A stretch of 64,000 nt of DNA from Polyangiaceae bacterium (GTDB lineage Bacteria; Myxococcota_A; Polyangia; Polyangiales; Polyangiaceae). Positions within the stretch are counted from its first letter, which is position 1. Every line of letters begins with the position of its first letter. The position numbers and the translations under genes were made by a program. Under the pieces are notes generated by a model, which saw nothing but the letters and a program-made list of their open reading frames with translations, was not told the origin of the DNA and made no database searches. The DNA is taken from contig CANJMI010000006.1 in the NCBI GenBank assembly GCA_947475525.1, positions 204,162-268,161 of the forward strand, written 5' to 3'. This document shows, in pieces, positions 893-63,051 of this stretch.

Positions 893-941
893 GCCGACAT
901 TGTAATCACGCTCGGCGCGTCCGTGGTAACGAAGGGCAGCT

Positions 942-2816: not shown

Positions 2817-2837
2817 ACTCAAGTAGGCTTCTGCCCT

Positions 2838-12024: not shown

Positions 12025-12034
12025 CCCGGCCGTC

Positions 12035-12571: not shown

Positions 12572-12604
12572 AAATGGAGTGTACCACCCGGACCGAAACG
12601 GCCG

Positions 12605-19326: not shown

Positions 19327-19337
19327 GGTGGCGTCCT

Positions 19338-46613: not shown

Positions 46614-47840
46614 ATGACAGCGCACACACGCGAGTTCGATCTCGTTCTTTTCGGGGCTACCGGGTTCACGGGGGCGCTCGTGGCCGAAGAGCTCCTCGCC
46701 CGAGGCGGCACGGTGCGCTGGGCGCTCGCTGGACGCGACCGAGCCAAACTCGAAGGCGTGAAGGCGCGGCTCACGGCGCTCTCGAAGACCGCGGGCGACC
46801 TGCAAATCCTGGTAGCGGACAGCCATGATGCGGTCGCACTCGACGCCCTCGCCAAGCGCACCCGCGTCGTGTGCACGACCGTAGGCCCTTACCATCAGCA
46901 CGGCCTCGAGCTTGTCCGAGCGTGCGCCGAGAACGGAACCCACTACTGCGACATCACCGGTGAGACGCCTTTCATGCGGCGAACGATCGACGCGCATCAC
47001 CGAACCGCGCAGTCAACCGGTGCCCGCATCGTTCACGCGTGCGGCTTTGACTCGATCCCATCCGACCTCGGCTGCCTCATCCTCGACGAAGCGATGCGAC
47101 TGCGCTCGGGAGCTCCCTGCGATGAAGCTACGTTGTACGTCACGAAGATGCGTGGCGGCGCGAGCGGCGGGACGCTTGCGAGCATGCTCGGCCTCCTCGA
47201 CGCGGCGAAGCGTGAGCCCGAGTTGCGCAAGGTGCTCCTCGATCCGTACGCGCTCAACCCCGACGGCGAACGCGCGGGCCCCGATGGCCCAGATGCGTTC
47301 GGTCTCTCGCTCGAAAAGGAGGGTTTTGTCGGTCCGTTCGTCATGGCGGGTGTCAACACGCGCGTCGTCCGCCGCACCAACGCGCTCCTCGGTTACCGTT
47401 ACGGGCGCGACTTTCGCTACCGCGAGGTGTCGCGTTACCGACGCTCGGTGATGGGCGCACTTCGATGCGGCGGAACCTCCCTCGGCCTCGGCGCGTTGTT
47501 GGGAGCCGCGGCCATTCCCGCGCTTCGTGGAGTGCTCGCTCGCGCGCTCCCGAAGCCCGGCGAAGGCCCCTCGAAAGAACAACGCGAACGCGGCCAATTT
47601 CGCATCGCCCTCGTCGGCACAAACCGCGTAAACGGTGTCCCGAACCGCGTCACCGCCCGAGTCGAAGGCAACCGCGATCCGGGCTACGGCTTCACCGCCA
47701 TCATGCTTTCGGAAGCCGCACTCTGCCTCGCATGTGACACGCTCACCTCCGAGGGCGGCGTGCTGACGCCCGCGTCGGCGATGGGCATGACGCTCGTGCA
47801 CCGCCTTCGTGGTGCCGGCATGGTGCTCGCCGCCGACTGA
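46614..47840 (+). CDS. saccharopine-dehydrogenase-like NAD(P)-binding protein
   Basis: Rossmann LVLFGATGFTGALV. Related to the Sacchrp_dh family. Confidence 0.7.
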   Translation: MTAHTREFDLVLFGATGFTGALVAEELLARGGTVRWALAGRDRAKLEGVKARLTALSKTAGDLQILVADSHDAVALDALAKRTRVVCTTVGPYHQHGLELVRACAENGTHYCDITGETPFMRRTIDAHHRTAQSTGARIVHACGFDSIPSDLGCLILDEAMRLRSGAPCDEATLYVTKMRGGASGGTLASMLGLLDAAKREPELRKVLLDPYALNPDGERAGPDGPDAFGLSLEKEGFVGPFVMAGVNTRVVRRTNALLGYRYGRDFRYREVSRYRRSVMGALRCGGTSLGLGALLGAAAIPALRGVLARALPKPGEGPSKEQRERGQFRIALVGTNRVNGVPNRVTARVEGNRDPGYGFTAIMLSEAALCLACDTLTSEGGVLTPASAMGMTLVHRLRGAGMVLAAD

Positions 47841-47843
47841 CGC

Positions 47844-49568
47844 TCACATCTTCTCTGGAGCCTCGATGCCGAGCAAGCCGAGCCCACGCGCAAGCACGGT
47901 CGCCGTAACGGCCGATAGCGCGAGCCTGGAGCGGCGCTCCTCGGGTGTGGCAGCCTTGAGCACCGGACAGTTCTGGTAGAAGGCCGAGAACGCGGTCGCC
48001 AGTTCGTAGAGGTAGCCACACAGACGGTGCGGAGCGAGCGACGCCGCAACGTCGCTGACGACGGTCGGATATGCGAGCAGCGCGAGCGCGAGCGCACGCT
48101 CTTGGGGAGCAATTATTTGGACCGCACTCGGGTCCACTTTTTCGTTCGCCTTGCGTAAAATCGAGCAAATTCTCGCGTGGGCGTACTGAAGATACGGGCC
48201 GGTGTTTCCCTCGAACGCGAGCATGCGTGCCCAATCGAACACGTAGTCTTTGACGCGATCGCTCGACAGGTCGGCGTATTTTATCGCACCGATCCCAATC
48301 GCTCGCCCAATTGCAGCGCGCTCGTCCGGCGCGAGCTCGGGATTCTTCTCCGCCACGACAGCGGTCGCTCGCAGGACGCCCTCTTCGAGCAGCTCGATGA
48401 GCCGCACGTTGTCGCCCGCCCGCGTTCGGAGGACCTTCCCATCCGACCCGAGCACCGAACCGAAGGCGACGTGCTCGGCACGCGCAGGCGGAGTGAGCCA
48501 GCCGGCGTGGATAGCCGCATCACGGATCATCGCGAGGTGCTGCGTTTGCGGCGCACCGACAACATAGAGGATGCGCGTAGCCGCGAGCGTCTGCAGCCGA
48601 TAGCGAATCGCTGCAAGATCCGTGGTCGCGTAGCCGTACCCGCCATCCTGTTTCTGCGCGATAAGAGGGAGCGGCGTGTCATCGCGGCCGGTGTAGCCAG
48701 GAACAAAGACGCATTTAGCGCCGTCGTTCTCGACGCACTGGCCCTTCGCCTCGAGCTCGGCAATCACCTCCGCGAGCATCGGATTGAAGAGGCTCTCGCC
48801 CGCGATGTCTTCATCTTGCAGCGTCACGCCGAGCAGCCGATAGAGCGCATTGAAGTGAACCCGCGAGGCTGAGACGAGCTGTCGCCACAACACGAGCGTC
48901 GCCTCGTCCCCGCCTTGCAAGAGAACGACCCTCCCGCGTGCGCGATCGGCAAAGGCGGGCTCGGCGTCGAACTTTGCTCGAGCAGCCTGATAGAACACGT
49001 TCAGATCGCGAATCGAGTGAGCATCGGCTTCGTTTCCCCCGTCGAGGAGGTGCTCTATCAGCATGCCGAATGGCGTGCCCCAGTCGCCAAGATGATTCTG
49101 ACGAATCACGGTGTGCCCGACAGCCTCTATCACCCGTGCGAGCGCATCCCCGATCACGGACGAACGCAGGTGCCCGACATGCATTTCCTTGGCGACGTTC
49201 GGCGAGGAGTAGTCGATGACGACGCGCTCCACGAGTGCCGCCGGTGCAAGGCCCGCGGTGCCGCCCGCTGAGACTCGCGCCACCTCGTCCGACAACAGCG
49301 CCGAGGTGAGCCGGATGTTGATGAAGCCTGGCCCCGCGAGTTCGGTGCTCTCGACAACGCCTTCAGAATCGAGATGCATCACGATCGCCGTCGCGACGTC
49401 GCGCGGGGCACGCTTCAGCACTTTCGCAAGCCCGAGAGCCGCGTTGGCCTGAAAGTCGGCGTGACTCGATGGGCGGATCGCGGGATCGACGCTCGCGTAC
49501 TCGGGACCGAAAGCGGAAACGATGGCGGCGCGAAAACGCTCGCCAAGAAGGACTGCGGGGTCGGACAT
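47844..49568 (-). CDS. argS: arginine--tRNA ligase
   Basis: HIGH motif SPNVAKEMHVGHLRSSVIGDAL. Class I aaRS fold. Length 574 aa. Confidence 0.95.
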   Translation of the reverse strand: MSDPAVLLGERFRAAIVSAFGPEYASVDPAIRPSSHADFQANAALGLAKVLKRAPRDVATAIVMHLDSEGVVESTELAGPGFINIRLTSALLSDEVARVSAGGTAGLAPAALVERVVIDYSSPNVAKEMHVGHLRSSVIGDALARVIEAVGHTVIRQNHLGDWGTPFGMLIEHLLDGGNEADAHSIRDLNVFYQAARAKFDAEPAFADRARGRVVLLQGGDEATLVLWRQLVSASRVHFNALYRLLGVTLQDEDIAGESLFNPMLAEVIAELEAKGQCVENDGAKCVFVPGYTGRDDTPLPLIAQKQDGGYGYATTDLAAIRYRLQTLAATRILYVVGAPQTQHLAMIRDAAIHAGWLTPPARAEHVAFGSVLGSDGKVLRTRAGDNVRLIELLEEGVLRATAVVAEKNPELAPDERAAIGRAIGIGAIKYADLSSDRVKDYVFDWARMLAFEGNTGPYLQYAHARICSILRKANEKVDPSAVQIIAPQERALALALLAYPTVVSDVAASLAPHRLCGYLYELATAFSAFYQNCPVLKAATPEERRSRLALSAVTATVLARGLGLLGIEAPEKM

Positions 49569-49649
49569 CGCGCGGAGCCTACACCAATCGCGCGTGCGTC
49601 GATTTGGCGCCGAACCTCACGCGGGAAGGTTTTATGGCGGCGCGGACGG

Positions 49650-52600
49650 TCAAATCGCGGGGGGCTTTCGCGGCGGAGGACGCCGGCCCTTCTCGAGCAA
49701 GGAGCGCACGGCACTCAACGCAAGCTCACTCTCCTCGCTACGCGACGCGGCGGCCTGCGCGAGCGGCAAGAGCGCTTGCTCGACCAGGCGGTTCTGCTCA
49801 CGAATGAGGTCCGCGATCTCGCGCGGCATCGCCGCATGAACGGCGACGGGGGCCTGACCGACAGCCTCGAGCGCGGCCTCGATGCGCAAAAGGTACGGGG
49901 TGAGCCACCCCTCCGCCCCTGCGAGCGAGCGCGCACGATGAAGCCGTGGAGCATCGCCACCATCCTCGTCGGCCGAAGGCTCCGCCTCGGGCGGAGGCGC
50001 CATCGTCGGCCGCTTCAGCATGACTTCGCGGACCGCACGAACGTCGAGACGCAAGCCGTCGATCGCCTCCTCAATCCCGCGCTCTCCGCCCTGTTGTACG
50101 ACATCACGGAGAGAATTCACGGCAGCCACGAGCTCCGAGCGATTGTCGTCACCGAGCTCCGCGCGAATCAACGCAAGCTCCGTCGCGACCGCCGTTGTGC
50201 GGTCCTGATCGAGCACGGCGCGAATCGCTTGAAGATCCGCTCCGACGCCTGCGATGGTCCCCGACAGACGCGCCACCGGGTCGTCGGCCGCGCCGCCCAT
50301 TCGCTTGTGGCGTACGTACTCGCGCTTGATCTCTTGCCACCGTGACGTCTCGGCCGTCGAAGCACGCCCGCGCAGCTCCCCGAGCTTGAGCAGGTTCGCT
50401 TCCGCACCCGTCGTCAACGTCTGCGCCTCCGAGGTGTAGTGCGACGTGACGAGCTGCTCGATCTCATCATCCGTCATCGCCGAGACGACCTTCTCGGCGA
50501 GCTTGTTCATGTTGCGGTAGCTCCCCTGAAGCTTGAACGGCGGCTCATTTCGGAAGCGGTCGTCTTGTGCCGCGGACGCGATGTACTGCAAATTAACGAG
50601 TAAAAGCGAACGCTGAACCCGTCCGAGGTGTTTGAAGACCGCCGTGATCTCCGCGAGCTCCGCCGCCGAGTAGCCATGCCGGAGATCCGTCGACGCGATA
50701 GGCTCGCCGCAAGACAGGCGGATCAGCTTCTCGACGTCGCCCGTGTCGCGCGTCGCGAGAGGCTGAAGCGCCGAGTTCGAGGTCAGCGCATTCTCGAGGT
50801 AGCTCGACGCGAAGACGTCTTCCTTGCCCGAGAGCACGTCACCCAAGTTGTAGGTGTCCGCGCGATTCGCGAGCATGTCCGGAATTTTGAAGGCCTCGCC
50901 GCTCTCCGTGTACGGATTGCCGGCCATCACCACGCAGAACTTCCGCCCGCGGAAATCATAGGTGCGCGTCCGCCCCCGCCACACGCCTTCGACCCGCCGC
51001 TGCGCGTCGCACAGGCTGATGAACTTCTGCAAAAACTCCGGATTCGTGTGCTGGATGTCGTCGAGGTAGAGCATCACGTTGTTGCCCATCTCGAACGCGA
51101 GATTGACCTTCTCGACCTCCTGCCGCGCGGTCGCGTTCGGTGCCTCCGCCGGATCGATCGAGACGACGCCGTGCCCGAGTGCCGGGCCGTTGACCTTGAC
51201 GAACACGAGGCCAAGGCGGCTCGCTACGTACTCCATCAGCGTCGTCTTGCCGTAGCCCGGCGGCGAGACGAGCAAGAGCAGGCCCATCAAGTCGGTGCGT
51301 TTGCCATCGCCCGCGGCACCGATCTGCTTGGCGAGGTTGTCCCCGACGAGCGGGAGGTAGACGTCATTGATCAGGCGGTTGCGAACGAACGCGCTCATCA
51401 CTTGTGGCCGGTACTCCGCGAGGCGCAACGCGGTGCGCTCGCGGTCGATGAGTTCCGCCCGAAGCTTGCGGTACCCGCGGTACGCTGGCAGCTCGTCACG
51501 CAGGTAGTGCCCGACACGAGCGAGGACCTCGTCTATGCCGATGCGCATGGCCCCCCCTACGACGCGTGGATGCTGGCCGATGAGCCCGACAACCTCGCCT
51601 TCGCACAGCGCCGCAGAAGCCACCCGCGAGAGCCCCGGCGAGCAGAGCATCACCGCGGCCTCGACCGCGACCCGACGCCGCGTCTCACGCGCCGGATCGG
51701 CCGCGATGAACGCGTCAACCCAAGCCACCGCCAGACCGAATCGCTCGCGCACGTGGCCGTCGAGAGCACGCATGTCCTCATCGAACGCGCTCCGCGTACC
51801 TTGCAACTCAAGCTGACGCACGAGCCCATCCCGCAAGGACTCCGACTCGGCACTGACCGTGAAGAATGACTCGCCGGTCAGCTCCTCGATGAGGTAGCTC
51901 CCCGCCTCGACCGCCGCGGGCACGAGCACCTCGAGGCCGTGCTTCGCAGCGAACGCACCCAACACCGGGGCCGCCTCAGCCGCGAGGGCGGTCAGCGCGT
52001 CACCGAGACCGAGGGCACTGCGCAAGCGGCCAAGACTCTTGGCCTGGAGACTCCATGCGCGCTTCGTCTCGCTGTCCTCGAGGGCCCCCCAGAAGAGTTG
52101 TCCGAGGGCGCGCGCTTTCGGTGAGAAACGCAGCAGCCCCGCCGAGTCATTCAGGATGAGGAGTCTCTCGAGGATCTTCGCCGCGTCCTGATCATGGACC
52201 CCGCGATCGTAGCCTTCGTCGTGACGCTCCGCCGCGAACGCGCCCACGACGGCATCGAGTTTGCCTGCCCGCTGTGCCTCTCGTAGCGCCGCAAGCGACG
52301 CCCCCTCTTGCCCGCGAACGGCCGCCGTGAAAACCAAAAACGCGAGGAACTCTGAGCGGTAAATCGAAGGCGTCTCGCTTGGAAGGCTCTGGTCCCAGAA
52401 GCGCCGCGTCGCCTCGAACGCCGCATCGGCGACCGGCTCGTAGTAGTCGGTTCCAGTCAGGTGAAACGCGAGCGCCGTACCCGGCTGCCCGCCCGCCGAG
52501 GTCCCATCGGACTTCGGCACCATCGTAAGCTCGAGCGGCTGCGTGTTGACGGTGAACCGGTGGCGTCCAAGCTTGATGAACTCGCCGTCCCCTTCGTAGA

Positions 52601-55196
52601 GGTCGAGCTTGTCCCGCAGGCCACGGAGAGCTTCCTGACGCGCGGCCTTCAACTTGGAGAGGACAGCCTCCGATTTCACGCTATCGCCGAGGGCTTGAAG
52701 TTCCGCGGCGAGCTGCCGTAACTTCAGCACCATCGCGTCGGCGGCGAAGTACGCGTTGAGATCATCGACGGTCTTCTGGCTGCGACCACGCCTCGCTATC
52801 CCGTCCAAGATGCGCTCGGCCGCCGTCGCCAAGCTCGCGACGCGGCGCGCCTTCTCATCGAGAAGTTGCTGCTTTTTCGCACCAAACGCCTCGTAGATCT
52901 CATCGCGTTTTCCAGCGAGTTCCGCGGAGAGTTCCTCGATGTCGGAGAAACGTCCTTCGAGTTCCTCGAGCTGAACAAGCAACCGCGAGAGTTGCTCGTC
53001 GCACTTTGCCGGACTGTCCGCGAGACCAATGGCGCTCGACACCGCTTGTCCAAGCACGGCCACTTGGACGACGACCTCGGCTCGCCCCTCCGCGCTCGCG
53101 AGCTCTTTGCGGCGGCCCTCGACGATCGCGCGGGTGCGGTTCAGCTGCCCGAAGACGGCGCTCAGTCCCTCGAGGATCTTGGTGCGCTGAGTCGCATCTT
53201 CGATCGGAAGATTGGAGACGACCTCGCCGAGCAACGCGAGCCCCTCAGCCACGAGAGCGAGTTTCTCTTTGTGCGGGCGAACATCGGAAGCCTTCACGAT
53301 CGCCGGCATCGCTCGTGCGAGCGCGTCGAGATCGACCGTCAGCGGTGCGAGCGCCTCGCCGCGTGAAAGGAAGAAGACGCACGCTTTGCTGAGCTCATCG
53401 AAACTACCGGTAACGCGCGTCTCGAGCTCGGCCACTTTCGCCAGATCCATCGAGCGGAGCTCTCGAAGCCCGATCAGATGGCCGCGCAACTTGCGTAGAT
53501 TCGCGAGCCCCTCGAGGAACGGATCGACCTTGCGCCAATGCTCGGGCCGCAGCTCGCGACCGACCACCGCGAACTTTTCCTCGGCGTCGGCGAGCGCCCG
53601 TTCAGCCTCTCGTCGGAACGCGACGACTTTCTCGAACTCATCGATGATGGTTTCGGTCGTGGCGCGTAGCTGGGCGACGACCGCCTTCAGGTTGAACGCC
53701 TCCTCGCGCTCGAGCCAGTAGAAGGCGTCCACCATTCGGTTCGCCCCCGCGATCAAGTCCTCGAAAGTCTGGCGCGTCGGCTGAGCGAGACGTGCGAGCC
53801 GGCACAGGCTGAGCGCATCGCTGATGCCGCGTACGAGCTCCGCATTGCCGACCTTCGCGAGGAACGAGCCATCGGTCGGTGCCTCCGCGGCAAACGTGAC
53901 GCTCGTGAACGGCGTCTGCCAGATTTGCATCGGGTGAACACGCGTCGGCTCTGATTCGTCGCGAAACACGACGAGTCGACCGTCGTCAAAGAGGCTGTAG
54001 CCGCCGCAACGGATCGGCGTCGCGACCTCTTTGCGGATCAAATTGTAAGGAAAGAGCGCGTAGGTCCCGCGGCGCTGCTCGTAGAAGAGGAAGAGAACAT
54101 CCTCACCGTTGGGCGAAGCGAGCTTGCGGTGGAACTCGAGGTCGCCATGGTCGCCGTCGAACAGCTTGTGGTCCCCACTCTCGAGGTACACGCCTCCCGG
54201 AAACACGAGACCGTGGTCTTCGGGGAGCGCGACGCACGATTGCGCGATGGCATCGATTCGAACCGCCGCCCGCGTCTTCGCGTTGAAGACGAAATGGCGT
54301 TTTTTCTCCTCGCGAAATGGCTGGATCTCGAGCACGACAAGGTGCCCGAACTCAGCGAAGCGAATGTTCGCATCGGACAGCGCTTGGTTGCGATCGTCCA
54401 CCGGCTCGGTGAGCACGGTGAGACCCTCCTTCGAGTTGTCCTCGACGCTGAGCCGCAGGCGGCCGCCGATGCAGCTGACGAACACCTTGCCCGCAATGTC
54501 CACGAACCGACCGTCGACCTGGTCGTCGGCCGCAGGAGCGATCCATTCGAAGTCGTGTTGGCGCGGCGATTGGTACTCGCGCTCACCCCGGTCATCGGTG
54601 TAGCGGACAGCGCCGTTCGGTTCGATGGACCAGCGAAATACCTTGGTTTCGCGCCACGAGGCGCCGACTTGGAAGATCGCAAAGAGCCGGGTATCGGTCG
54701 AGACCAGCTGCAAGAGCTGGGCGTCGCGCACGTACTTGTAGAGCGCCGTGAAATCCTTGACGAACTGCGGATCCTGGAGAAACCCACCGACATCCTCAAA
54801 GCCGACCGCGCTGCAATCGTACCCACCCTCACGCACGTCGAAGCGATGAAGGGCGAAGACGTCGGCGATCTTCGTCTCGCTCTTCAGCCCGATGAACACA
54901 TTGAAGCCGACGAGCAAACGCCCGCCGACCTCGACGATGTCGACCGGCAAGCAATTGTGCTCCGTGCGCACCCGCTCGGTCGCGATGACGGCGAGCTCCT
55001 GCCCACCGAAGGTCTCCTTGCGACGCCCATTCAGGGCATCGGCACGCCTCCCGAGTTCGCTCCCATGTTCGAGGAGCCTCCCTCGGATGACATCGTAATT
55101 CCCGCCGTCGAGCGTGGTCGCGCTGCTCGACACTTCGGCGCCACTGGCCGCTTGCTCATTCGCCATCGGAGACCTCCCGGCAGCCGCCCGGAACAC
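49650..55196 (-). CDS. very large (1848 aa) AAA+ ATPase-domain protein; probably the family that databases label 'DNA repair ATPase' (DUF3686-like, conserved LDD). Co-transcribed downstream of flotillin/YqiJ.
   Basis: Single high-GC3 ORF. Beta-rich N-terminal ~500 aa, a long helical/coiled-coil middle, then the AAA domain (Walker A LLLLVSPPGYGKTTLMEYV, Walker B VMLYLDDIQHTN, arginine finger region GNPYTESGEAFKIPDMLANRADTY), and an acidic/Pro C-terminal tail. Lies 20 bp after the flotillin stop. Confidence 0.85.
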   Translation of the reverse strand: MFRAAAGRSPMANEQAASGAEVSSSATTLDGGNYDVIRGRLLEHGSELGRRADALNGRRKETFGGQELAVIATERVRTEHNCLPVDIVEVGGRLLVGFNVFIGLKSETKIADVFALHRFDVREGGYDCSAVGFEDVGGFLQDPQFVKDFTALYKYVRDAQLLQLVSTDTRLFAIFQVGASWRETKVFRWSIEPNGAVRYTDDRGEREYQSPRQHDFEWIAPAADDQVDGRFVDIAGKVFVSCIGGRLRLSVEDNSKEGLTVLTEPVDDRNQALSDANIRFAEFGHLVVLEIQPFREEKKRHFVFNAKTRAAVRIDAIAQSCVALPEDHGLVFPGGVYLESGDHKLFDGDHGDLEFHRKLASPNGEDVLFLFYEQRRGTYALFPYNLIRKEVATPIRCGGYSLFDDGRLVVFRDESEPTRVHPMQIWQTPFTSVTFAAEAPTDGSFLAKVGNAELVRGISDALSLCRLARLAQPTRQTFEDLIAGANRMVDAFYWLEREEAFNLKAVVAQLRATTETIIDEFEKVVAFRREAERALADAEEKFAVVGRELRPEHWRKVDPFLEGLANLRKLRGHLIGLRELRSMDLAKVAELETRVTGSFDELSKACVFFLSRGEALAPLTVDLDALARAMPAIVKASDVRPHKEKLALVAEGLALLGEVVSNLPIEDATQRTKILEGLSAVFGQLNRTRAIVEGRRKELASAEGRAEVVVQVAVLGQAVSSAIGLADSPAKCDEQLSRLLVQLEELEGRFSDIEELSAELAGKRDEIYEAFGAKKQQLLDEKARRVASLATAAERILDGIARRGRSQKTVDDLNAYFAADAMVLKLRQLAAELQALGDSVKSEAVLSKLKAARQEALRGLRDKLDLYEGDGEFIKLGRHRFTVNTQPLELTMVPKSDGTSAGGQPGTALAFHLTGTDYYEPVADAAFEATRRFWDQSLPSETPSIYRSEFLAFLVFTAAVRGQEGASLAALREAQRAGKLDAVVGAFAAERHDEGYDRGVHDQDAAKILERLLILNDSAGLLRFSPKARALGQLFWGALEDSETKRAWSLQAKSLGRLRSALGLGDALTALAAEAAPVLGAFAAKHGLEVLVPAAVEAGSYLIEELTGESFFTVSAESESLRDGLVRQLELQGTRSAFDEDMRALDGHVRERFGLAVAWVDAFIAADPARETRRRVAVEAAVMLCSPGLSRVASAALCEGEVVGLIGQHPRVVGGAMRIGIDEVLARVGHYLRDELPAYRGYRKLRAELIDRERTALRLAEYRPQVMSAFVRNRLINDVYLPLVGDNLAKQIGAAGDGKRTDLMGLLLLVSPPGYGKTTLMEYVASRLGLVFVKVNGPALGHGVVSIDPAEAPNATARQEVEKVNLAFEMGNNVMLYLDDIQHTNPEFLQKFISLCDAQRRVEGVWRGRTRTYDFRGRKFCVVMAGNPYTESGEAFKIPDMLANRADTYNLGDVLSGKEDVFASSYLENALTSNSALQPLATRDTGDVEKLIRLSCGEPIASTDLRHGYSAAELAEITAVFKHLGRVQRSLLLVNLQYIASAAQDDRFRNEPPFKLQGSYRNMNKLAEKVVSAMTDDEIEQLVTSHYTSEAQTLTTGAEANLLKLGELRGRASTAETSRWQEIKREYVRHKRMGGAADDPVARLSGTIAGVGADLQAIRAVLDQDRTTAVATELALIRAELGDDNRSELVAAVNSLRDVVQQGGERGIEEAIDGLRLDVRAVREVMLKRPTMAPPPEAEPSADEDGGDAPRLHRARSLAGAEGWLTPYLLRIEAALEAVGQAPVAVHAAMPREIADLIREQNRLVEQALLPLAQAAASRSEESELALSAVRSLLEKGRRPPPRKPPAI

Positions 55197-55215
55197 CGGG
55201 CGGAAGGTTCAACAA

Positions 55216-57315
55216 TCAGGGAGCCTTCGGACCGCCCTTGCTCGACTGAGGAGCACGCGGAGTCGAGGCGGCTGGACCCATCAGTCGCTTCAGCTCATCG
55301 CCGAGTTTTCCATCGTCACCGATGTGGTCCGCGAGCAGGGCCTGCAGCGTCTTGGAGTTCTGGACCGCGCCGTCGATCGACGAGCCGACACCGACAGCCT
55401 TGACGAAGCGATCGAAGAAGGCGCCGTCGCCACCGACGATGTTGATGCTGGCCTTTTCGAAAGCCTTCGAGAGAATCAAAGCCTGCTGGCCTGCAACCGC
55501 GATGCGGGTCTCAAGCTCCTGCATCGCGATGTCCTTCTGCGTCTGGAGTCGCAGCCGGAACTCTTCATGCTCGCGGCTGTCCCCTTCGAGGCCTTGCATC
55601 GCCTCGGTCTTCTGCTTCAGCCCCTCGGCCTCCGCGAACATGCGCGCCTTGATCGCCTCGGCATCGGCGTGCCTGCCGGCCACCTCGGCGAGCAACTTCT
55701 CGCGCACGGCCGTCGCCTCGGCACGACCTAGCTTCTCGACCGCAACCGACTCCGCCTCCTTGACCTGGACCGAAGCCAGACCGCGCTGCTGCAAGCCGGC
55801 GGCCTCGGCGAATTCCTTGCGCTTGATGTTCTCCGCGTCGACGGTGCCTTCGCGCTCGCGCAGCGTGACCTCGGCGTCGCGGACGCGCACCTTGGCAAGA
55901 CCTTGTTTCTCGATCGCCGCCGCGTCGGCTTCCTTCACGCGGACCTCGGCGAGGCCCGTGGCTGCCTGCTCCGCCTGCACGCCCTCGGCGAGCCTCATCT
56001 TGGCGCGAGCATCGCGATCGGCGGCTTCGAGCTCCGCGTCCGCGAGCAACATGCGCTGACGCGCCCGGTGCTTTGCGACCTCCTCGTCAGCCTCCGCTTT
56101 GCGGACCTCCTTGACGAGCACTTCCTGAGCCGCGCCTTCGGCATGGATGACCTTCGCGTCTTTTTCGCGTTTGGCCGCTGCGAGGGTCCGAATATCCTTG
56201 ATGGCTTCCTCTTCGGTCGCGACCGTCTTCTCGACGGAAATGCGATCGCGCACGACGTCCGCGATCTTCTTCTTCTTAATCTCGAGCTCTTCTTGCCGCT
56301 CGATGTCGCGAAGCTGAACCTCCTTGTTTCGGCCGATGTCCTCGAGCTCTTTGGCCTTCGTGACACGGACTTGTTCTACGGCGAGCTCGCGCAGGCGCGC
56401 TTGTTCGGCCACCATCACCGCGCGCTGGCGATTTTGCTCGGCAACCTGGCCCTCTTCGTTGGCTTTTTCGAGGGTCTTCTTGGTCTTCAGCTGTTCGTCG
56501 ATTTGGGTGCGACGCGCATCTTCGCTCTCGCGGGACTGCGCCATCGTGATCTCTTTGTTGCGCTTGGCCTCGGCGTCGGCGCGTTGCTGATCGTAGCGAA
56601 ACACGGCCTCATCGGACGTGAGGTTTTGCTTGCCGATCTCCATGCGCTCGCGCTGCTTCAGCTCGTTGGTTTCGATGTTGCGCTGGGTCGTGATCGACGT
56701 GATCTTTCGAATGCCGTCGGCATCGAGGATGTTCTCGGGATCGAGGAGCTCGAGGGGAGTCTGCTCGACGAAATCGATCGCCGCGTCTTCGAGAACGTAG
56801 CCGTTTAGATCTTTGCCGATCATCCCAATGATGTCGTCGCGGAAGCGCTCGCGCTGCGTGTAGAGATCCTCGAAATCGAGTCCTTTACCTACGCTTTTCA
56901 GCGCTTCGGAGAATTTCGCGGCGAAGAGAACGTCGAGGGTGTTCTGGTCGCTCGCGCGGACGCAGCCGAGCGACTGAGCCACTCGGAGAACGTCCTCGAC
57001 GGTCTTGTTCACACGGACGAAGAAGGTAACTTTGATGTCCGCGCGAATGTTGTCGCGACAGATCAGCCCCTCTTTGCCGCGGCGGTCGATCTCGATCGTC
57101 TTGACGGAGATGTCCATCACCTCGGAGCGATTGATGATCGGCAGGACGACGGCACCGTTGAAGGTGACCTTCTGTCCGGTCGTGGAATTGATGATCAAGG
57201 CCCTGCCCTGCTCCACCATTCGATAGAAGCGCGCCAGCATCACAAAGACGCCAATCACGAAGACGACCAGTAGCCCCAAGACGATCAACCAGAATTCAAG
57301 CATCGGACCCTCCAA
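55216..57315 (-). CDS. flotillin-like SPFH/band-7 protein (YqiK-like) with an extended E/A/K/R-rich coiled-coil
   Basis: N-terminal TM helix, SPFH domain (ALIINSTTGQKVTFNGAVVLPIINRSEVMDISVKTIEID...), then ~400 aa of EA-rich coiled-coil. Confidence 0.9.
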   Translation of the reverse strand: MEGPMLEFWLIVLGLLVVFVIGVFVMLARFYRMVEQGRALIINSTTGQKVTFNGAVVLPIINRSEVMDISVKTIEIDRRGKEGLICRDNIRADIKVTFFVRVNKTVEDVLRVAQSLGCVRASDQNTLDVLFAAKFSEALKSVGKGLDFEDLYTQRERFRDDIIGMIGKDLNGYVLEDAAIDFVEQTPLELLDPENILDADGIRKITSITTQRNIETNELKQRERMEIGKQNLTSDEAVFRYDQQRADAEAKRNKEITMAQSRESEDARRTQIDEQLKTKKTLEKANEEGQVAEQNRQRAVMVAEQARLRELAVEQVRVTKAKELEDIGRNKEVQLRDIERQEELEIKKKKIADVVRDRISVEKTVATEEEAIKDIRTLAAAKREKDAKVIHAEGAAQEVLVKEVRKAEADEEVAKHRARQRMLLADAELEAADRDARAKMRLAEGVQAEQAATGLAEVRVKEADAAAIEKQGLAKVRVRDAEVTLREREGTVDAENIKRKEFAEAAGLQQRGLASVQVKEAESVAVEKLGRAEATAVREKLLAEVAGRHADAEAIKARMFAEAEGLKQKTEAMQGLEGDSREHEEFRLRLQTQKDIAMQELETRIAVAGQQALILSKAFEKASINIVGGDGAFFDRFVKAVGVGSSIDGAVQNSKTLQALLADHIGDDGKLGDELKRLMGPAASTPRAPQSSKGGPKAP

Positions 57316-57318
57316 CCG

Positions 57319-58173
57319 TTAGCTGTTCGAGCGGGTCGAGTCGTCTCGCCCCGTTCCCTCGTGCCCCAAAAGTTCGTCGTAGGGCTCCACCAGGTAGGCC
57401 CCACGCGCTTCGTCGTAATCGATGACGATCGCGGAATCTCCGCGCTTCAGACGTCCGCTCGTTGCGGCCCCCGCAGCTGAGCCGTCAGCTACCGCCACGC
57501 GCAGCCGAGTCGTATCGATTCTCACGTCGATGACGAGCTCCGCACCTTCGTCTTGGAGGGTCGCCTGCCCAAAGCCTTCGTCTACGCGACCGCTGCGGAT
57601 CTCACACACCGCGCCGACCAGCTCGTGGCGCTTGCGCCCCTCGGACGTCTTGAAGAGCCCTTCGAGTGGGCGCGTCGCGAGCGAGGTCATCGGCACGGCG
57701 GCAACGAGCGAGCCCAAGAAAAGCAGCGCACCGAAGAGACCGCTCGGCATCACCGTGAGCGCGAGCGGGCCGAGCAGACGCATCCCGCAGAACGTTGCGA
57801 TCCAGCCGAACAGCGCAAAGAAACTCAGCGTCACGGTCAGTGGCACGCGCCGCAGATTGAAGAACGCGGCGGCAGAGCCAGCCTCGTCAATCCCCGGAGC
57901 GTCGGCTGCATGACCCGCCGTCGCATGACCCGCCGCCGCGTGCCCGTCGAGCGCACTCGCAGCCGCCTCGCCTTTCGCCGCGGCCGCGTCGAGTAGGCCG
58001 CCGGCGACCTCGCCTTTCGCCAGCGCCGCGTCGAGAAGGCCCCCGTGGTCGCCTCCACCATCGAGGTCGACCGCGCCCGCGATCACCAGCAACCAATACG
58101 CGACGATGAGCACCAGCACGCCGGAATAAATCACGGTCGGAAAGGCCAATAGTGCGCTCGTCAACTCCCCCAT
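57319..58173 (-). CDS. YqiJ/NfeD-like membrane protein (OB-fold C-terminus); partner of flotillin
   Basis: Several TM helices. C-terminal beta-rich segment LVGAVCEIRSGRV...GSAAGAATSGRLKRGDSAIVIDYDEARGAYLVEP matches the NfeD short-form pattern. Lies 4 bp upstream of flotillin. Confidence 0.75.
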   Translation of the reverse strand: MGELTSALLAFPTVIYSGVLVLIVAYWLLVIAGAVDLDGGGDHGGLLDAALAKGEVAGGLLDAAAAKGEAAASALDGHAAAGHATAGHAADAPGIDEAGSAAAFFNLRRVPLTVTLSFFALFGWIATFCGMRLLGPLALTVMPSGLFGALLFLGSLVAAVPMTSLATRPLEGLFKTSEGRKRHELVGAVCEIRSGRVDEGFGQATLQDEGAELVIDVRIDTTRLRVAVADGSAAGAATSGRLKRGDSAIVIDYDEARGAYLVEPYDELLGHEGTGRDDSTRSNS

Positions 58174-58246
58174 TCGCGTGGCGCAGCGTAGGCTCGAACG
58201 GTGAGGTCCACAAGCGAGGAGTGCTCGTCAGGGAGTGCGACCGGCG

Positions 58247-58768
58247 TCACGCCTCGGAGTCGCCAGGGCCGTCTTCGCGAGGCGCGAGCACCCCGGCCGA
58301 TGCGCTCCCCAAACGAAGCGCGCGCAGCTCTTGCAGAACCGCATCGAGACGCTCGACGACCGCATCGTTGGTCGCGACCGCGGGGACTTGAGCCTCGCAC
58401 GGTGGTCTGAGCGCGGACGCCGCGAGCGACGGCCCAAGGGCATGCACGACCGCCGCTATCATCTGCCCAGCCTGCGTCCGCGGATGGATCTCGTGGTAGC
58501 CGACGCTCAGGCTCGTGGAGATGTAGACGAGCGCATCGGCGTAGGTTGTCACCCGCGGATTTTCGTCGTGCTCCGCTTGGTAGAAAAGCCAGGCCGCGCC
58601 GGCGGTGAAGCGAAAGAGCGCGTCGATCGGATCTTTTTCAACCTCGCTTCGAAGCGTGGACTTCAAGCCCTCGAGGCTCAGGTCTTCGCCCGTCGCGGCA
58701 AACAGCACCGCCGCGTTGAGCGCGAGCGCCGCCAGTCCTTGTTTGCGTGGCTTCTCGGTCGAGCTCAT
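58247..58768 (-). CDS. small pore-loop (2TM K+-channel-like, Ion_trans_2-type) protein with a degenerate selectivity filter (SVGYHE instead of TVGYGD)
   Basis: TTYADALVYISTSLSVGYHEIHPRTQAGQMIAAVVHALG parallels the K-channel pore helix, filter and inner helix. High GC3. The start ATG overlaps the stop of the upstream PBP gene (ATGA). Confidence 0.6.
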   Translation of the reverse strand: MSSTEKPRKQGLAALALNAAVLFAATGEDLSLEGLKSTLRSEVEKDPIDALFRFTAGAAWLFYQAEHDENPRVTTYADALVYISTSLSVGYHEIHPRTQAGQMIAAVVHALGPSLAASALRPPCEAQVPAVATNDAVVERLDAVLQELRALRLGSASAGVLAPREDGPGDSEA

Positions 58769-60306
58769 TGGGGCGGCACCACCATCACCGTATCGAAGTC
58801 GGTGAAGGCTTTGTTCGGCACCCACACCTCGATCGGCCCCGGTGCTTCTCCGCGCGCGGGGTCAAAATCGAGTGGGCCCGATATTCCGTAGATATCGATG
58901 TTTTTTCCGCCCGTGAGCGCCGCGGCGGCCTTCGTAAAATCCGTCTGACCGACGTTCACCGGACTGCCGCTCGAGAGACGCGTCAACCCTGCCGCAACAT
59001 CGAAGCCGTCGAAGCCAGCCACCGCGTGTTTCGCCGCCGTCAGCCCGTAGAGCAAACCGTATGCGCCGACGTACGCGGCATCGTAGCTGTGCGACACGAA
59101 GCCAAAGCCGGTGACGGTCACGCCATAGAGGCTGTTCATTTGCTGCACGAATTTTGCGTAGGCGGCCGCGGCGTTCGGGTCGAAAGCGGCGGGGCCGGTA
59201 CCGACCGCAGCACGAATGAGAGCCTGAACCTCCTTCGGCTGTTTCGGGTCGAGGATCACCGTGCTCCGCGAGCCATCGGTGAGAAAGAGTTTCGGCGTCG
59301 TGAACGCGTTCTTCGCGGCTTCGTTTAAGAACGTCAACGTGGTCGCGGCGTCGGACGCGACGACCAGGAGTGCGGCGGCGTTCTTTGCCTTCGCATCGAC
59401 GGCGGCCTTTGCAAGATCGGTCGCGAGGTTCGAGTCAACGCGGAACGGCAGCGAGGTCATCGTGTTGCCGGCGGCCGTCCAGCCTTCACGAAACGCGGTC
59501 TCGATGCCGCTGCCGTAGGCGTCGTTTTGATAGACGACCGTCACCGAGGTCACCATCGACTTCGCGATTTCTCCGACAAGCACGGCCGCTTGAAGCGTGT
59601 CGCGCGGGCACGTGCGCCAAAACAAGCCGGTCATCCGCCCGTCGAAGACGACCGGGTCATCGGTGAGCCCCGCCGCCGTTGCCGAAGGTGAGATAAGCGT
59701 CGTCGGGAGGGCCTTCACTTTGAGCACGCCGATGGCCGCAGCCACGTTGGCGCTCGAGGCGGGACCGAGAATCAGCGGCACACCGAGCGAGCCTGCCAAG
59801 TACTCCGTGAGCCGCGCCGTCTCGACGCTGTCGGTCGTGGTCGCGGTCGCGTCGTTGCGACACACGAGCAGCGCGACATCGAGGCCATCGATGCCGCCCG
59901 CCACGTTGATCTCGTCGACCGCGAGCCGCATCGCGCTCGCCCGTGCGTTCTGACTTGTGGTGTCTTTGAGCAGGGCGCCTATCAGCAGTCGATCGCCGAC
60001 GGTGCCCGGAAATTCGCCCGCGAGCGAAGGGGGTTCACTGAGGGAGCAGCGCGGCTCAGCGGCGGCAAGTGCGCAACGCTGAGCTTCACAGGTTGCCCCG
60101 TAACCGAAGGTCTTGCGGCAGTCGCTCGTCGTCTCGCACGTCGCGGGGTCGGTGCAGTAACCGTCCGCACACGCGCTGCCGGCGCCGAAGGCCACGGCGC
60201 ACGCGCCATCGGTCGCGCATCGCTCAGGCGAAAGATTGCCGAAGGAGCACCCCGTGAGGGCGAGCGCGACGATGGCGGCAAGCGAGGAGCGAGACACGGT
60301 GTGCAT
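58765..60306 (-). CDS. type I periplasmic binding protein (LIVBP/ANF-receptor-like, Peripla_BP_6) lipoprotein with a Cys-rich N-terminal module
   Basis: Lipobox ALALTGCS, 14 Cys in the first ~90 aa, then a PBP fold (LLIGALLKDTTSQNARASAMRLAVDEINVAGGIDG...LILGPASSANVAAAIGV). No ABC permease or ATPase genes nearby. Confidence 0.75.
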   Translation of the reverse strand: MHTVSRSSLAAIVALALTGCSFGNLSPERCATDGACAVAFGAGSACADGYCTDPATCETTSDCRKTFGYGATCEAQRCALAAAEPRCSLSEPPSLAGEFPGTVGDRLLIGALLKDTTSQNARASAMRLAVDEINVAGGIDGLDVALLVCRNDATATTTDSVETARLTEYLAGSLGVPLILGPASSANVAAAIGVLKVKALPTTLISPSATAAGLTDDPVVFDGRMTGLFWRTCPRDTLQAAVLVGEIAKSMVTSVTVVYQNDAYGSGIETAFREGWTAAGNTMTSLPFRVDSNLATDLAKAAVDAKAKNAAALLVVASDAATTLTFLNEAAKNAFTTPKLFLTDGSRSTVILDPKQPKEVQALIRAAVGTGPAAFDPNAAAAYAKFVQQMNSLYGVTVTGFGFVSHSYDAAYVGAYGLLYGLTAAKHAVAGFDGFDVAAGLTRLSSGSPVNVGQTDFTKAAAALTGGKNIDIYGISGPLDFDPARGEAPGPIEVWVPNKAFTDFDTVMVVPPQ

Positions 60307-60312
60307 GCTACC

Positions 60313-61941
60313 TCACTTCGCCTTTGGACTCGCGTCGACGTGCAGGCCGAGCTGCGCGCGCTCGAGCATCAGCCCCTCGATGGCGGCGCGGTCGGCAAGC
60401 GTCGGGCGCCCCCATTCGGGCTCGTAGCCGAACACCTCGGTGGCCGACCGCACGACGAAACCGGGATCGACGATGGCAAGTCGATCGAGCGGCACGAGCG
60501 ACGGATGAGACACACCGCATGCACCGCCGAGAGAGAGAAGTTCCTTCCGCAGCGTGGCAAGATAGTTCGCTAGCCGAGCCGACTTGTCGGTGGGATCGAG
60601 GCCTCGCATCAACCATGCGCTCTGGGTCGCGACCCCGCTCGGGCAGTTGCCCGTGTGGCACTCCTGAGCCTGGATGCACCCAAGCGCGAGCATCGCCTCC
60701 CGCGCGACGTTGAGCATGTCGCAACCCATCGCGAGCGCGAGCAATCCGACCCCGGGAAAACCGAGCTTGCCCGAGCCGATGATGACAACCTTCTCCTGGA
60801 CGCCGCGAGCCGCCAACGCTCGATAAACCGATGCGAGCCCAAGCTTGAAAGGCAACGCGACGTGGTCCGCGAAGACCAGCGGGGCTGCGCCTGTGCCACC
60901 TTCTCCGCCATCGATGGTGATGAAGTCCGGGGCGCGACCCGTCGTGTCGATAAGCCGCGCGAGGTCGTCCCAAAACGAAAGCTCACCGACGGCGCTCTTG
61001 ATGCCGACGGGCAGACCCGTGGCGTCGGCCAGCCGCTCGATGAAGTCGAGCATCGAGTCGGTGTCCTTGAAGGCTCGGTGATGCGCGGGACTGATGCAGT
61101 CTTGACCGAGCGGGATCAGGCGAATCTTTGCAATTTCGGGCGTCACTTTGGCGGCGGGAAGCACGCCACCGAGGCCGGGCTTCGCGCCTTGACTCAATTT
61201 GAGTTCGATCGCTCGAACGGGAGCCGAGGCCACCGCCTCCAGGAAGCGCTCCATGGAAAAGCCGCCGCGCTCGTCGCGGCAACCGAAGTAGCCGGTGCCG
61301 ATCTGCCAGACGAGGTCACCGCCATGGCGATGGTGCTCCGAGATCCCTCCTTCGCCCGTGTTCTGCATCGCGCCGGCGAGCTTCACGCCGCGATTGAGTG
61401 CCTGGATGGCGTTCGGGCTCAGTGAGCCGAAGCTCATCGCTGAGGTGTTGACGATCGACGAAGGGCGAAAGGCTTTCTTCCGACCGCGATGAGCACCGAG
61501 CACTTTGGCAGCCGGACACGCGAAGGAGGCATCGAAGCCCGGCTCGCCGGCATGCGGCAAGTGGAGTGGAAAAGTCGAATGCCGAACGATGACGTAGCCC
61601 GGTGATGTCTCCAAATCGTTGTCTGTCCCGAAGCCGAAGTAGTTGTTCTCCTTCTTTGCGGACGCGTAAATCCAGCGGCGCTGGTCGCGTGAGAATGGGC
61701 GCTCCTCGTCATTTTTCGCGACGAAATACTGGCGAACCGGCGGACCGAGCAGCTCGAGCCAGTAGCGTCCGTGCCCGACGAGCGGAAAATTGCGGAGGAT
61801 CGCGTGCTTCTTCTGCGTGAGATCGCGCACGACGACGAGCACGAGGAAACTTGCGATGACGATGGCGACCCAGCCGGAGGTTGGCACCCGCGGAAGCCTA
61901 CCTGCGACCGTAACGACTCGGTGAGCAAAGTCGCCATCCAT
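60313..61941 (-). CDS. FMN-binding glutamate-synthase-family protein (GltS domain-2-like) with N-terminal TM anchor
   Basis: The central GltS_FMN motifs ([14 protein letters not shown]...[26 protein letters not shown]...[15 protein letters not shown]...[13 protein letters not shown]) are all present. Confidence 0.85.
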
Positions 61942-62118
61942 GCGTTATGCCGCGATGGTGAGGGAGCGCGGTTCGGCGACGAAGCCGGGCAATCGCCTCC
62001 GCATCGCGTTCGAAGCGCCCAAGAGCGTGCGCGGCAGGGCGCAGCCGCTGCACGACAGCTACGAGGACTATCGCTCTCGGTAAAACGTCACGCTGGCCGT
62101 GGTAACCTTCGCGGCTTG

Positions 62119-62819
62119 ATGAGTACGCATGATGACGCGCCGCCGCCGCTCTCGGTGCCGAGTTTTCCGGTGCCCACGGGTCGCAACGACTCGCCGCGGA
62201 TTCTTATCCTTTACGGCTCGCTTCGCGAACGCTCCTACAGCCGGCTGCTCGCCGAGGAGGCGGCGCGGATCCTCGAGGGGCTCTCGTGCGAGGTGCGTTT
62301 CTTTCATCCCCACGACCTCCCGATCAAAGCCCCTGGTCACGATGGCCATCCCGAAGTTCAGCGTTTGCGCGAGCTTTCCCTTTGGTCGGACGGGCAAGTG
62401 TGGTCCTGCCCCGAGATGCATGGAGCGATCACCGGCGTATTCAAGAATCAGCTCGATTGGATCCCCCTCGAGCTCGGTGCGGTTCGGCCTACCCAGGGGC
62501 GCACGCTGGCGGTGATGCAGGTGTGTGGTGGCTTATAATTGTTCAATGTCGTCAACACGTTGCGACTGCTTTTGGGCGTTGGATGCGGATGCTCGCTATT
62601 CCGAATCAATCATCGGTCCCGAAACCCTACGAACAGTTTCGCGAGAACGGCCGCATGAAAGATTCCGCGTACCGTGACCGCCTCGTGGACGTGATGGAAG
62701 AACTCTACAAGTTCACCTGGCTGACCCGAGACATTCGAGAGTTTCTCGTCGATCGGTACAGCGAACGGCGCGAGGCGACGGCCAAGGCCCTCGTGAGCGC
62801 GGCCCAATTGCAATGGTGA
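62119..62819 (+). pseudogene. arsH: arsH (NADPH-dependent FMN reductase ArsH) disrupted by an in-frame TAA (62536-62538) and a frameshift in a G/T run near 62575-62579
   Basis: The first frame ([11 protein letters not shown]...[27 protein letters not shown]...AVMQVCGGL*) matches the ArsH N-terminal half. The ArsH C-terminal half ([53 protein letters not shown]...) continues in another frame. Where ArsH has GGSQSFNAVN, this sequence reads GGL*LFNVVN. Confidence 0.75.
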
Positions 62820-62884
62820 ACTGTTATTGAGGTTTTGTTGGCACCTTTGCCGAGATCTGGAGACTGCGTCGGCTTTCACAGGAA

Positions 62885-63051
62885 AACCTTGACCACTTGA
62901 CTGATGACTTAACTCACGCTTGACTTACAACCGTGTCCTACGAACCCCAATTCACGATCAGCCCGCACCTGCTTTCGCTGGTGGAGGAGTCCGCCAGAAG
63001 CCATGCGGGAGCGTGGCGCGCGGACAAAAAAACGCGACAAATACCTATAAT
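62885..63051 (+). promoter_or_regulatory. AT-rich intergenic region with clustered TTGAC(C/T) direct repeats and a sigma70-like -35/-10 (GGACAA-18 bp-TATAAT at 63022/63046) upstream of hsdM
   Basis: TTGACC/TTGACT/TGACTT/TTGACT at 62889-62926. TATAAT at 63046-63051. Local GC drops sharply relative to the window. Confidence 0.3.

Follow-up and report, generated by a model that had tools for sequence, protein, structure and literature searches.

The YqiJ–Flotillin–DUF3686 ATPase Triad of a Polyangiaceae Genome: A Conserved Gene Set With a Possible Role in Membrane Scaffold Remodelling

Six consecutive open reading frames (ORFs) occupy positions 49650–61941 on the minus strand of a 64,000-nt stretch of DNA from a Polyangiaceae bacterium (contig CANJMI010000006.1; the whole stretch is referred to here as the window). 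In order of transcription they encode a glutamate-synthase (Glu_synthase)-domain protein, a periplasmic binding protein (PBP), a pore-loop protein, a YqiJ-like protein, a flotillin, and a giant AAA+ ATPase of the DUF3686 family, and all six match public gene calls of the same contig (metagenome-assembled genome GCA_943331335.2, CALQLE020000076.1). An earlier reading of this DNA, here called the original prediction, had correctly placed the six genes on one strand and had viewed them as a single candidate for an undescribed membrane-microdomain system. This article concerns the last three genes, here termed the triad, which recur together in distantly related bacteria. On balance, a three-gene operon comprising a yqiJ-like (NfeD2) gene, a yqiK-like flotillin gene, and a DUF3686 ATPase gene is favoured as the functional unit.

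The Locus and Its Core Gene Products

The triad and the features recognized within it are listed below in order of position.

49650–55166, minus strand: giant soluble DUF3686 AAA+ ATPase, 1838 amino acids (aa); ATG at 55164–55166, with the ORF reaching a GTG at 55196
50247–51389, minus strand: AAA+ module of the ATPase, approximately aa 1270–1650 (invariant motif residues; Foldseek matches to NorQ, RuvB, and MCM)
53103–53357, minus strand: DUF7902 helical segment (Pfam PF25472, E 8e-23) inside a coiled-coil/helical stalk of approximately aa 430–870, modelled as long helices
53718–55058, minus strand: DUF3686 domain, aa 47–493, predicted to be beta-propeller-like
55184–55203, minus strand: GC-rich hairpin, CCGCCCGG-TGTT-CCGGGCGG, in the 49-nt spacer between the flotillin and ATPase genes
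55216–57303, minus strand: YqiK-type flotillin (SPFH2), 695 aa, identified by BLASTP to YqiK; ATG at 57303 with a GGAGGG Shine-Dalgarno sequence
57319–58173, minus strand: YqiJ/YuaF-type short NfeD protein (NfeD2), 284 aa, supported by hhalign, by YqiJ_N matches in orthologues, and by three hydrophobic segments

The flotillin and ATPase genes were assigned ATG starts with GGAGGG and GGGAGG upstream, respectively. The public gene calls use the same codons, and the resulting gaps are 15 nt between the YqiJ-like and flotillin genes and 49 nt between the flotillin and ATPase genes. The values of 4 and 20 bp given in the original prediction rest on upstream TTG/GTG codons. Similarly, an ORF does extend from a GTG, as had been assumed for the giant protein, but the ATG with its Shine-Dalgarno sequence and the public call give a length of 1838 aa rather than 1848 aa. 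The argS gene starts 81 nt past the ATPase gene.

The ATPase displays all of the features of the DUF3686 family, namely an N-terminal DUF3686 domain (Pfam, E 1e-177), DUF7902, and a C-terminal AAA+ domain (matching AAA/AAA_5) with intact Walker A, Walker B, sensor-1, and arginine finger motifs; both of the families suggested for it beforehand, DUF3686 and AAA_5, were thus recovered. An AlphaFold 2 model of residues 11–700 (predicted local distance difference test score, pLDDT, 87.7) consists of an N-terminal helix, approximately 27 strands within residues 69–427 (59–417 of the model), and then long helices. Every top Foldseek match to this model in the PDB is a beta-propeller (Elp1, prolyl oligopeptidases, YncE, paraoxonase, and WD40 proteins), with E-values down to 3e-6 and low TM-scores, so that the structure prediction proposed for the N-terminus returns a confident model of beta-propeller type. 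Besides the AAA+ module, the model of residues 701–1848 (pLDDT 81) contains further coiled coil, one small beta and one helical domain, and a helical tail that is in part disordered, and its nearest solved folds are those of NorQ (MoxR family), RuvB, and MCM (E ~1e-3); the NorQ-like match is consistent with the AAA_5 hit and with the “MAGNP” sensor-1 motif. The catalytic motifs comprise Walker A SPPGYGKTT (K1317), Walker B LDD (D1379 and D1380), which carries DD and not DE, sensor-1 N1427 within MAGNP, and R1445 as a candidate arginine finger, and all of these residues are invariant in alignments of 14 and 61 sequences. The description of a protein with a beta-rich N-terminus, a coiled coil, and an AAA+ domain bearing a conserved LDD motif is thus upheld by the Pfam matches, the models, and the alignments. 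Hydropathy indicates no transmembrane segment, Pfam detects neither a protease nor a nucleic-acid-binding domain, and PDB searches with single sequences and profiles found P-loop similarity only and no structure from the family. The protein has more than 3897 homologues, and searching exhaustively with its N-terminal 690 residues gave 916 clusters at 50% identity. Full-length homologues measure 1600–1900 aa and keep the architecture down to 26% identity over these N-terminal 690 residues.

The two smaller proteins are more divergent. Neither has a match in Pfam, NCBIfam, or PDB sequences, even at E 10 for Pfam and NCBIfam, and profile searches with both against PDB sequences returned nothing informative. 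The flotillin assignment of 55216–57303 nevertheless holds at the sequence level: BLASTP aligns residues 5–471, including the SPFH region, with Escherichia coli YqiK (29% identity over 483 aa, E 4e-33), and Band_7 is matched by 5 of 21 orthologues (best E 2e-12). The predicted layout is an N-terminal transmembrane segment (residues 10–28, the only one), the SPFH domain, a long E/A/K/R-rich coiled coil, and a conserved C-terminal IVGGDG..FF motif. Residues 200–600 are 55–63% E/K/R/Q/A and align with the YqiK coiled coil, although the Flot model (PF15975) matches neither the window protein, even at E 10, nor the 21 orthologues. The Band_7 and Flot models together miss the window flotillin at E 10 and 16 of the 21 orthologues, and SPFH surveys that rely on domain models probably count too few members of this subfamily. 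The YqiJ label of 57319–58173 is likewise supported by sequence comparison, its OB fold being putative. A profile of 21 YqiJ-like sequences aligns with E. coli YqiJ (hhalign probability 81%, E 1e-5) across the second and third transmembrane segments (TM2–TM3) and the C-terminal beta domain; YqiJ_N is matched by 5 of 21 orthologues and NfeD (PF01957) by one of 21, at E 0.19. Three hydrophobic segments are arranged as TM1, a variable acidic/Gly-Ala loop, and TM2–TM3, and are followed by a beta-rich domain with the conserved pattern LVG..C.V.T..VD..FGQA...DGGAGL...VR in the alignment. The gene lies directly upstream of that for the flotillin.

Conservation of the Triad and Its Neighbours

Linkage was assessed from both directions. 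The ATPase alignment was used to scan one genome per species, which yielded 80 loci from Myxococcota, Gammaproteobacteria, Acidobacteriota, Planctomycetota, Gemmatimonadota, and Bradymonadia, of which 69 were informative (at least 3.2 kb of upstream DNA), and 80 metagenome loci were seeded with the flotillin, 64 of them with enough downstream sequence. The flotillin gene is directly upstream of the ATPase gene on the same strand in 64 of the 69 informative loci (93%), and 60 have the full YqiJ–flotillin–ATPase triad with order and strand conserved; among the five without a flotillin gene directly upstream, a flotillin gene lies within 8 kb in two and is missing in three. Conversely, the ATPase gene is directly downstream of the flotillin gene in 55 of 64 flotillin-seeded loci (86%). 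Median gaps within the triad are approximately 60 and 52 nt, that between the flotillin and ATPase genes being approximately 60 nt. This adjacency is far beyond chance, and it shows that the ATPase homologues are not placed at random with respect to flotillin and NfeD genes and that the tie between the giant ATPase and the NfeD–flotillin pair, as originally proposed, is real. Clustering of all ORFs from the 80 ATPase-seeded loci revealed no other widely conserved neighbour.

The association persists at great evolutionary distance. The five most distant full-length ATPases examined (26–31% identity over the N-terminal 690 aa; GC content 24–42%), whose carriers are probably Bacteroidota-like, are all encoded in triads, with genes for YqiJ-like proteins of 205–214 aa and flotillin-like proteins of 615–673 aa directly upstream; both identities are confirmed by profile hidden Markov models. 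The closest relative (assembly GCA_016853205.1) is arranged differently, with an ATPase of 71% identity (L082, JACXTT010005539.1) and a flotillin of 80% identity (L092, JACXTT010066970.1) on separate contigs. Neither gene has its partner adjoining within the sequence at hand, and their presence on different contigs indicates that both have been retained. The L082 ATPase gene sits between a serpin gene and a cluster encoding a response regulator, an FHA protein, and a Ser-Thr kinase.

Such linkage bears directly on the name “DNA repair ATPase” given to the protein in source databases, according to which it would be a repair enzyme and its proximity to a flotillin incidental. Apart from the name itself, weak RuvB_N and RuvB matches are the only indications of such a function. 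The NCBIfam RuvB matches, confined to the P-loop region, score 17–20 bits against cut-offs of 282–299, the Pfam RuvB_N match falls short of its own cut-off, no nucleic-acid-binding domain is found, 86–93% of loci link the gene to those of membrane proteins, and no full-text mention of “DUF3686” or “PF12458” was found in the literature searched. A repair function is therefore regarded as highly improbable, and the original prediction was justified in calling the name unsupported.

The claim that the system was undescribed does not survive, since the triad operon has appeared in a comparative genomic study (Ravi et al., 2024; mSystems, PMC11237479; preprint 2020). That study reports operons encoding YqiJ/YuaF, a band-7 plus flotillin protein, and a beta-propeller plus coiled-coil plus AAA+ protein, with or without a CesT/Tir–PspA pair, at times including a PLD/HKD hydrolase. 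It attributes a wider distribution to the “related abbreviated operons” that lack PspA, and proposes a role in membrane dynamics. Its Table S3 gives for Dokdonia donghaensis (ANH61663.1) the order YqiJ-YuaF, then Band-7+CC+Flotillin, then Betapropeller+Coiled-coil+AAA-ATPase. The same triad order runs from 58173 to 49650 on the minus strand of the window, where the PspA-linked form is not found; lacking CesT/Tir–PspA, the window triad corresponds to the abbreviated form. The triad is thus known as a comparative genomics prediction noted once, likely a membrane-stress module, and is experimentally uncharacterised. The present analysis adds linkage figures in both directions, fold models of the ATPase, the invariant DD of Walker B, and a list of accessory genes (PspA/YjfI, rhomboid, PLD, TelA, and the degenerate pore-loop protein).

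Accessory genes of the PspA-linked form were found in nine gammaproteobacterial loci, in which DUF2170 (YjfI, CesT/Tir-like) and PspA genes lie directly upstream of the triad. Directly 3′ of the ATPase gene are a rhomboid gene in six loci, a PLD/HKD gene in four, and a Zn-ribbon gene in seven, nearly all within these same nine; the stretch is represented by L057 15320–17154, with equivalents in L052, L056, L060, L062, L064, L071, and L078. The rhomboid and Zn-ribbon partners are not mentioned in the operon description consulted in PMC11237479. Among the five distant low-GC loci, three carry TelA (PF05816) near the ATPase gene (L086 11001–12221, L088 13176–14303, and L089 11502–12608), that of L086 being directly downstream on the same strand, and L085 has a PspA gene (18780–19532) 6 kb downstream. 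TelA is a further association with membrane or toxic-anion stress and is not mentioned for the operon in PMC11237479. The triad, and not PspA, is the invariant core. The L088 triad has flanking genes (575–3232 and 11191–12811) for an RNA ligase, an HD/KTI12/AAA_33 kinase-like protein, and an R2K ATP-grasp protein upstream and for an HTH–HipA toxin pair downstream; this RNA-repair or conflict-type neighbourhood was seen in that one locus only.

Neighbours of this kind bear on a reading of the locus as an anti-phage or abortive-infection system in which a membrane scaffold is joined to an ATPase effector; phage defence had been raised as speculation in the original prediction. Large ATPases paired with membrane proteins are indeed common in defence systems, and some of the distant loci adjoin HipA, RNA ligase/kinase, or Dam-like methylase genes. 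Against this, PADLOC-DB 2.0 gives only P-loop-level matches for the ATPase (IetA and mad8; E 0.004–0.015) and none for the other five proteins, no copy is present among 2.9 million viral contigs, and defence genes do not recur among the neighbours, the recurrent partners being PspA, PLD, rhomboid, and TelA. The module is moreover broadly retained across cultured Myxococcota genera and lies beside housekeeping genes in the window. A role in defence is accordingly considered very unlikely.

The three genes upstream of the triad in the window have a much narrower distribution, and comprise the following.

58247–58768, minus strand: accessory pore-loop (Ion_trans_2-like) protein, 173 aa, outside the conserved core (Pfam, 23.3 bits)
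58765–60306, minus strand: type-I periplasmic binding lipoprotein (ANF_receptor/Peripla_BP_6 in Pfam; lipobox LTGC), a clade-specific neighbour
60313–61941, minus strand: membrane-anchored glutamate-synthase FMN-domain protein (PF01645, Pfam E 4e-79; N-terminal transmembrane segment), a clade-specific neighbour

The last of these had been labelled GltS-like, but its domain is the glutamate-synthase FMN domain and not that of the GltS symporter. A divergent FMN_red (PF03358) gene lies upstream of it on the plus strand (window ~62068–62540; L083 999–1418 in the public calls), and these FMN proteins may be redox partners of each other, with no relation to the flotillin module. The pore-loop protein belongs to a small family of 21 homologue clusters. 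Its degenerate character, inferred in the original prediction, is confirmed by a filter reading SVGYHE instead of TVGYGD; eight homologues have SVGY[S/D/A]D, and the second glycine is lost in nine of nine. Ion conduction is doubtful given this degenerate filter, and the protein was rejected as a potassium channel, its Ion_trans_2 score being borderline (cut-off 22.5 bits) and its flanking segments weakly hydrophobic (maximum Kyte-Doolittle value 1.42). One homologue, 59% identical, occurs without the triad in L091 (8001–11395), followed by genes for a 253-aa protein without a Pfam match, a fatty-acid desaturase, and a phosphatidylserine decarboxylase, a lipid-metabolism context.

These distributions allow the idea that all six genes act as one unit to be assessed. 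On that reading the PBP and pore-loop protein would constitute a periplasmic ligand-sensing channel or sensor feeding the flotillin and ATPase, with the Glu_synthase-domain protein as a metabolic partner. The six genes share a strand, the ATGA overlap of the PBP stop and pore-loop start that had been described is present in the public gene calls, and regulation of ion channels is known for SPFH proteins of the stomatin family. The complete six-gene order also occurs in L090 (identities of 73% for the ATPase, 84% for the flotillin, 82% for the Glu_synthase-domain protein, 66% for the PBP, 62% for the channel-like protein, and 54% for YqiJ), and the P0273 contig carries a PBP-sized gene, probably a PBP homologue, overlapping the start of the channel-like gene, which the triad then follows. 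Approximately 10% of loci (8 of 80 in the genomic set, and likewise 8 of 80 from metagenomes) have a pore-loop gene close to the triad, its stop overlapping the yqiJ start in four genomic loci. However, none of the 80 genomic or 80 metagenome loci contains a homologue of the PBP or Glu_synthase gene, and the Glu_synthase gene adjoins that of the PBP in L090 only; since L090 is a close relative, the shared order may represent inherited synteny. None of these genes is present in L082, the relative with 71% identity, the pore-loop gene also exists apart from the triad, 73 nt separate it from the yqiJ-like gene in the window, and its filter argues against conduction. The argS gene, also considered as part of the unit, was rejected, being absent from all of the related loci. 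Three tiers can thus be distinguished in the locus: the triad, which is universal; the channel-like gene, which is an occasional accessory; and the PBP/Glu_synthase extension, which is confined to a narrow clade and may be inherited synteny. The pore-loop, PBP, and Glu_synthase-domain genes are regarded as clade add-ons of uncertain relevance, the six-gene arrangement is clade-specific and not general, and a single functional unit of all six genes is distinctly unlikely.

A Proposed Scaffold-Remodelling Module

SPFH/flotillin proteins form membrane-attached cages, and NfeD proteins bind SPFH partners, as in the case of QmcA and YbbJ. By hydropathy, the flotillin of the triad is predicted to span the membrane once and the YqiJ-like protein three times, with no transmembrane segment in the ATPase. 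From what is known of these families, the YqiJ-like protein would reside in the inner membrane and bind or nucleate the flotillin through its C-terminal OB-like domain, and the flotillin, anchored by its N-terminal transmembrane segment, would use its long coiled coil to oligomerise, forming a cage or patch at the cytoplasmic face. The soluble ATPase may assemble through an AAA+ ring of the pre-sensor-1 hairpin group, with a fold closest to NorQ/MoxR, RuvB, and MCM, and could extend to the scaffold by way of its stalk of coiled coil and its beta-propeller. ATP would then be used to assemble, remodel, or disassemble the flotillin scaffold (together with a PspA/ESCRT-III-like scaffold where present) or the clients held by it, a process that may serve homeostasis of the envelope under membrane stress. 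The recurrent accessories, PspA, YjfI, PLD, rhomboid, and TelA, all point to a membrane function. Taken as a whole, a sub-membrane flotillin scaffold module, with an ATPase that acts during envelope stress to remodel either the scaffold or the clients of the scaffold, is the interpretation to which we lean, with modest confidence.

Several observations weigh against this interpretation. Its mechanism is drawn from gene context and fold. Adjacency is missing in approximately 7–14% of loci, and the flotillin and ATPase genes of the closest relative are split. No PspA, TelA, PLD, or DUF2170 gene is present in the 64-kb window. Walker B of the ATPase being DD rather than DE, a slow, switch-like ATPase instead of a motor is possible. 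The spacer between the flotillin and ATPase genes is, in addition, often strongly structured: orthologous spacers have z < −2 relative to shuffles in 17 of 41 cases (structured examples include L023, L041, L065, L069, and L079), and some are terminator-like with a T-run, so that the ATPase may be expressed separately or at a different level. This suggests either attenuation setting a high flotillin-to-ATPase ratio or separate transcription in some lineages. The window spacer itself has a minimum free energy of −24 kcal/mol (z = −1.7), and its hairpin lacks a T-run. A promoter consensus scan found no promoter-like site, and the terminator-like sites detected were all intragenic and not above shuffle expectation, making the scan uninformative on co-transcription; Rfam gave no match at E 0.1 across 47000–63000.

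The alternative nearest to scaffold remodelling is client-directed quality control, in which the flotillin/NfeD cage would confine unfolded or damaged membrane-associated proteins and the ATPase would act as an unfoldase or extractor, in parallel with HflK/C-FtsH or with FloA-NfeD of Staphylococcus aureus. The genomic linkage favours both equally. Pairings of SPFH proteins with AAA+ machines, and the stabilisation of unfolded proteins by FloA-NfeD, are established in other family members (PMC11222466 and PMC13086221). The rhomboid protease encoded directly downstream in six gammaproteobacterial loci would suit such a function, and a beta-propeller could plausibly bind substrates or adaptors. 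On the other hand, the ATPase has no protease domain, its AAA+ fold is nearest to MoxR/NorQ, RuvB, and MCM and not to classic-clade unfoldases, a DD Walker B is atypical of processive unfoldases, and any client protein would be hypothetical. Quality control is judged the less probable explanation and somewhat unlikely, and the two are inseparable on present data.

Scaffold remodelling can also be stated in a more specific form, in which the DUF3686 ATPase would be a dedicated ATP-driven remodeller of flotillin (and PspA/ESCRT-III-like) scaffolds, a counterpart of Vps4 for microdomains, which in this Polyangia-related clade would furthermore be wired to a split ligand sensor formed by the PBP lipoprotein and, translationally coupled to it, the degenerate pore-loop protein whose gene abuts yqiJ. 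This combined form is speculative and rather improbable; if true, the flotillin cage would respond to a periplasmic solute. More generally, a ~200-kDa ATPase encoded beside one flotillin subfamily in 86–93% of loci from several phyla is the most obvious handle on the role of bacterial flotillins and on whether their scaffolds undergo active remodelling. Cultured carriers include Myxococcus, Corallococcus, Sorangium, and Cellvibrio. A practical consequence is that the ATPase should be re-annotated away from “DNA repair.”

Comparison With Known Systems

The closest precedent is the operon of Ravi et al. (2024; PMC11237479), which has the same three proteins in the same order and with the same domain architectures, and for which that paper gives no frequency data, structure, or experiments. 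Its full form was recovered in nine gammaproteobacterial relatives of the window ATPase, four with PLD, whereas the window has pore-loop, PBP lipoprotein, and Glu_synthase-domain genes upstream in place of CesT/Tir, PspA, and PLD. The yqiJ-yqiK operon of E. coli and the yuaF-floT operon of Bacillus subtilis (Hinderhofer et al., 2009; PMC2636767) likewise place a short NfeD2 gene, encoding three transmembrane segments, upstream of an SPFH2 flotillin gene but contain no AAA+ gene, E. coli yqiK being followed by sibD/ibsD; neither Hinderhofer et al. (2009) nor a 2026 paper on SPFH proteins of Pseudomonas aeruginosa mentions an ATPase partner. The window flotillin is also approximately 140 aa longer than the YqiK type in its coiled coil.

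Further parallels are found in HflK/C-FtsH and prohibitin–m-AAA, membrane systems in which an SPFH scaffold works together with an AAA+ machine and which are similar by analogy. FtsH belongs to the classic clade of AAA+ proteins, is anchored in the membrane, and carries an M41 protease domain, in contrast to the window ATPase, which has neither a transmembrane segment nor a protease domain and a fold nearest to NorQ, RuvB, and MCM; HflK/C are SPFH3 proteins rather than flotillins and are not encoded beside ftsH. With the MoxR/NorQ/CbbQ group the window ATPase shares the best structural match of its AAA+ module (NorQ, E 6e-4, a weak match), the AAA_5 hit, and an “AGNP” sensor-1, but it differs in having no VWA partner gene, an N-terminal extension of approximately 1270 aa, and a Walker B of DD rather than DE. 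Finally, Vps4–ESCRT-III and the bacterial PspA/Vipp1 proteins with AAA+ ATPases resemble the triad in that the gene for an ATPase stands beside that for a membrane-remodelling polymer, and in nine of the related loci PspA itself is encoded directly upstream.

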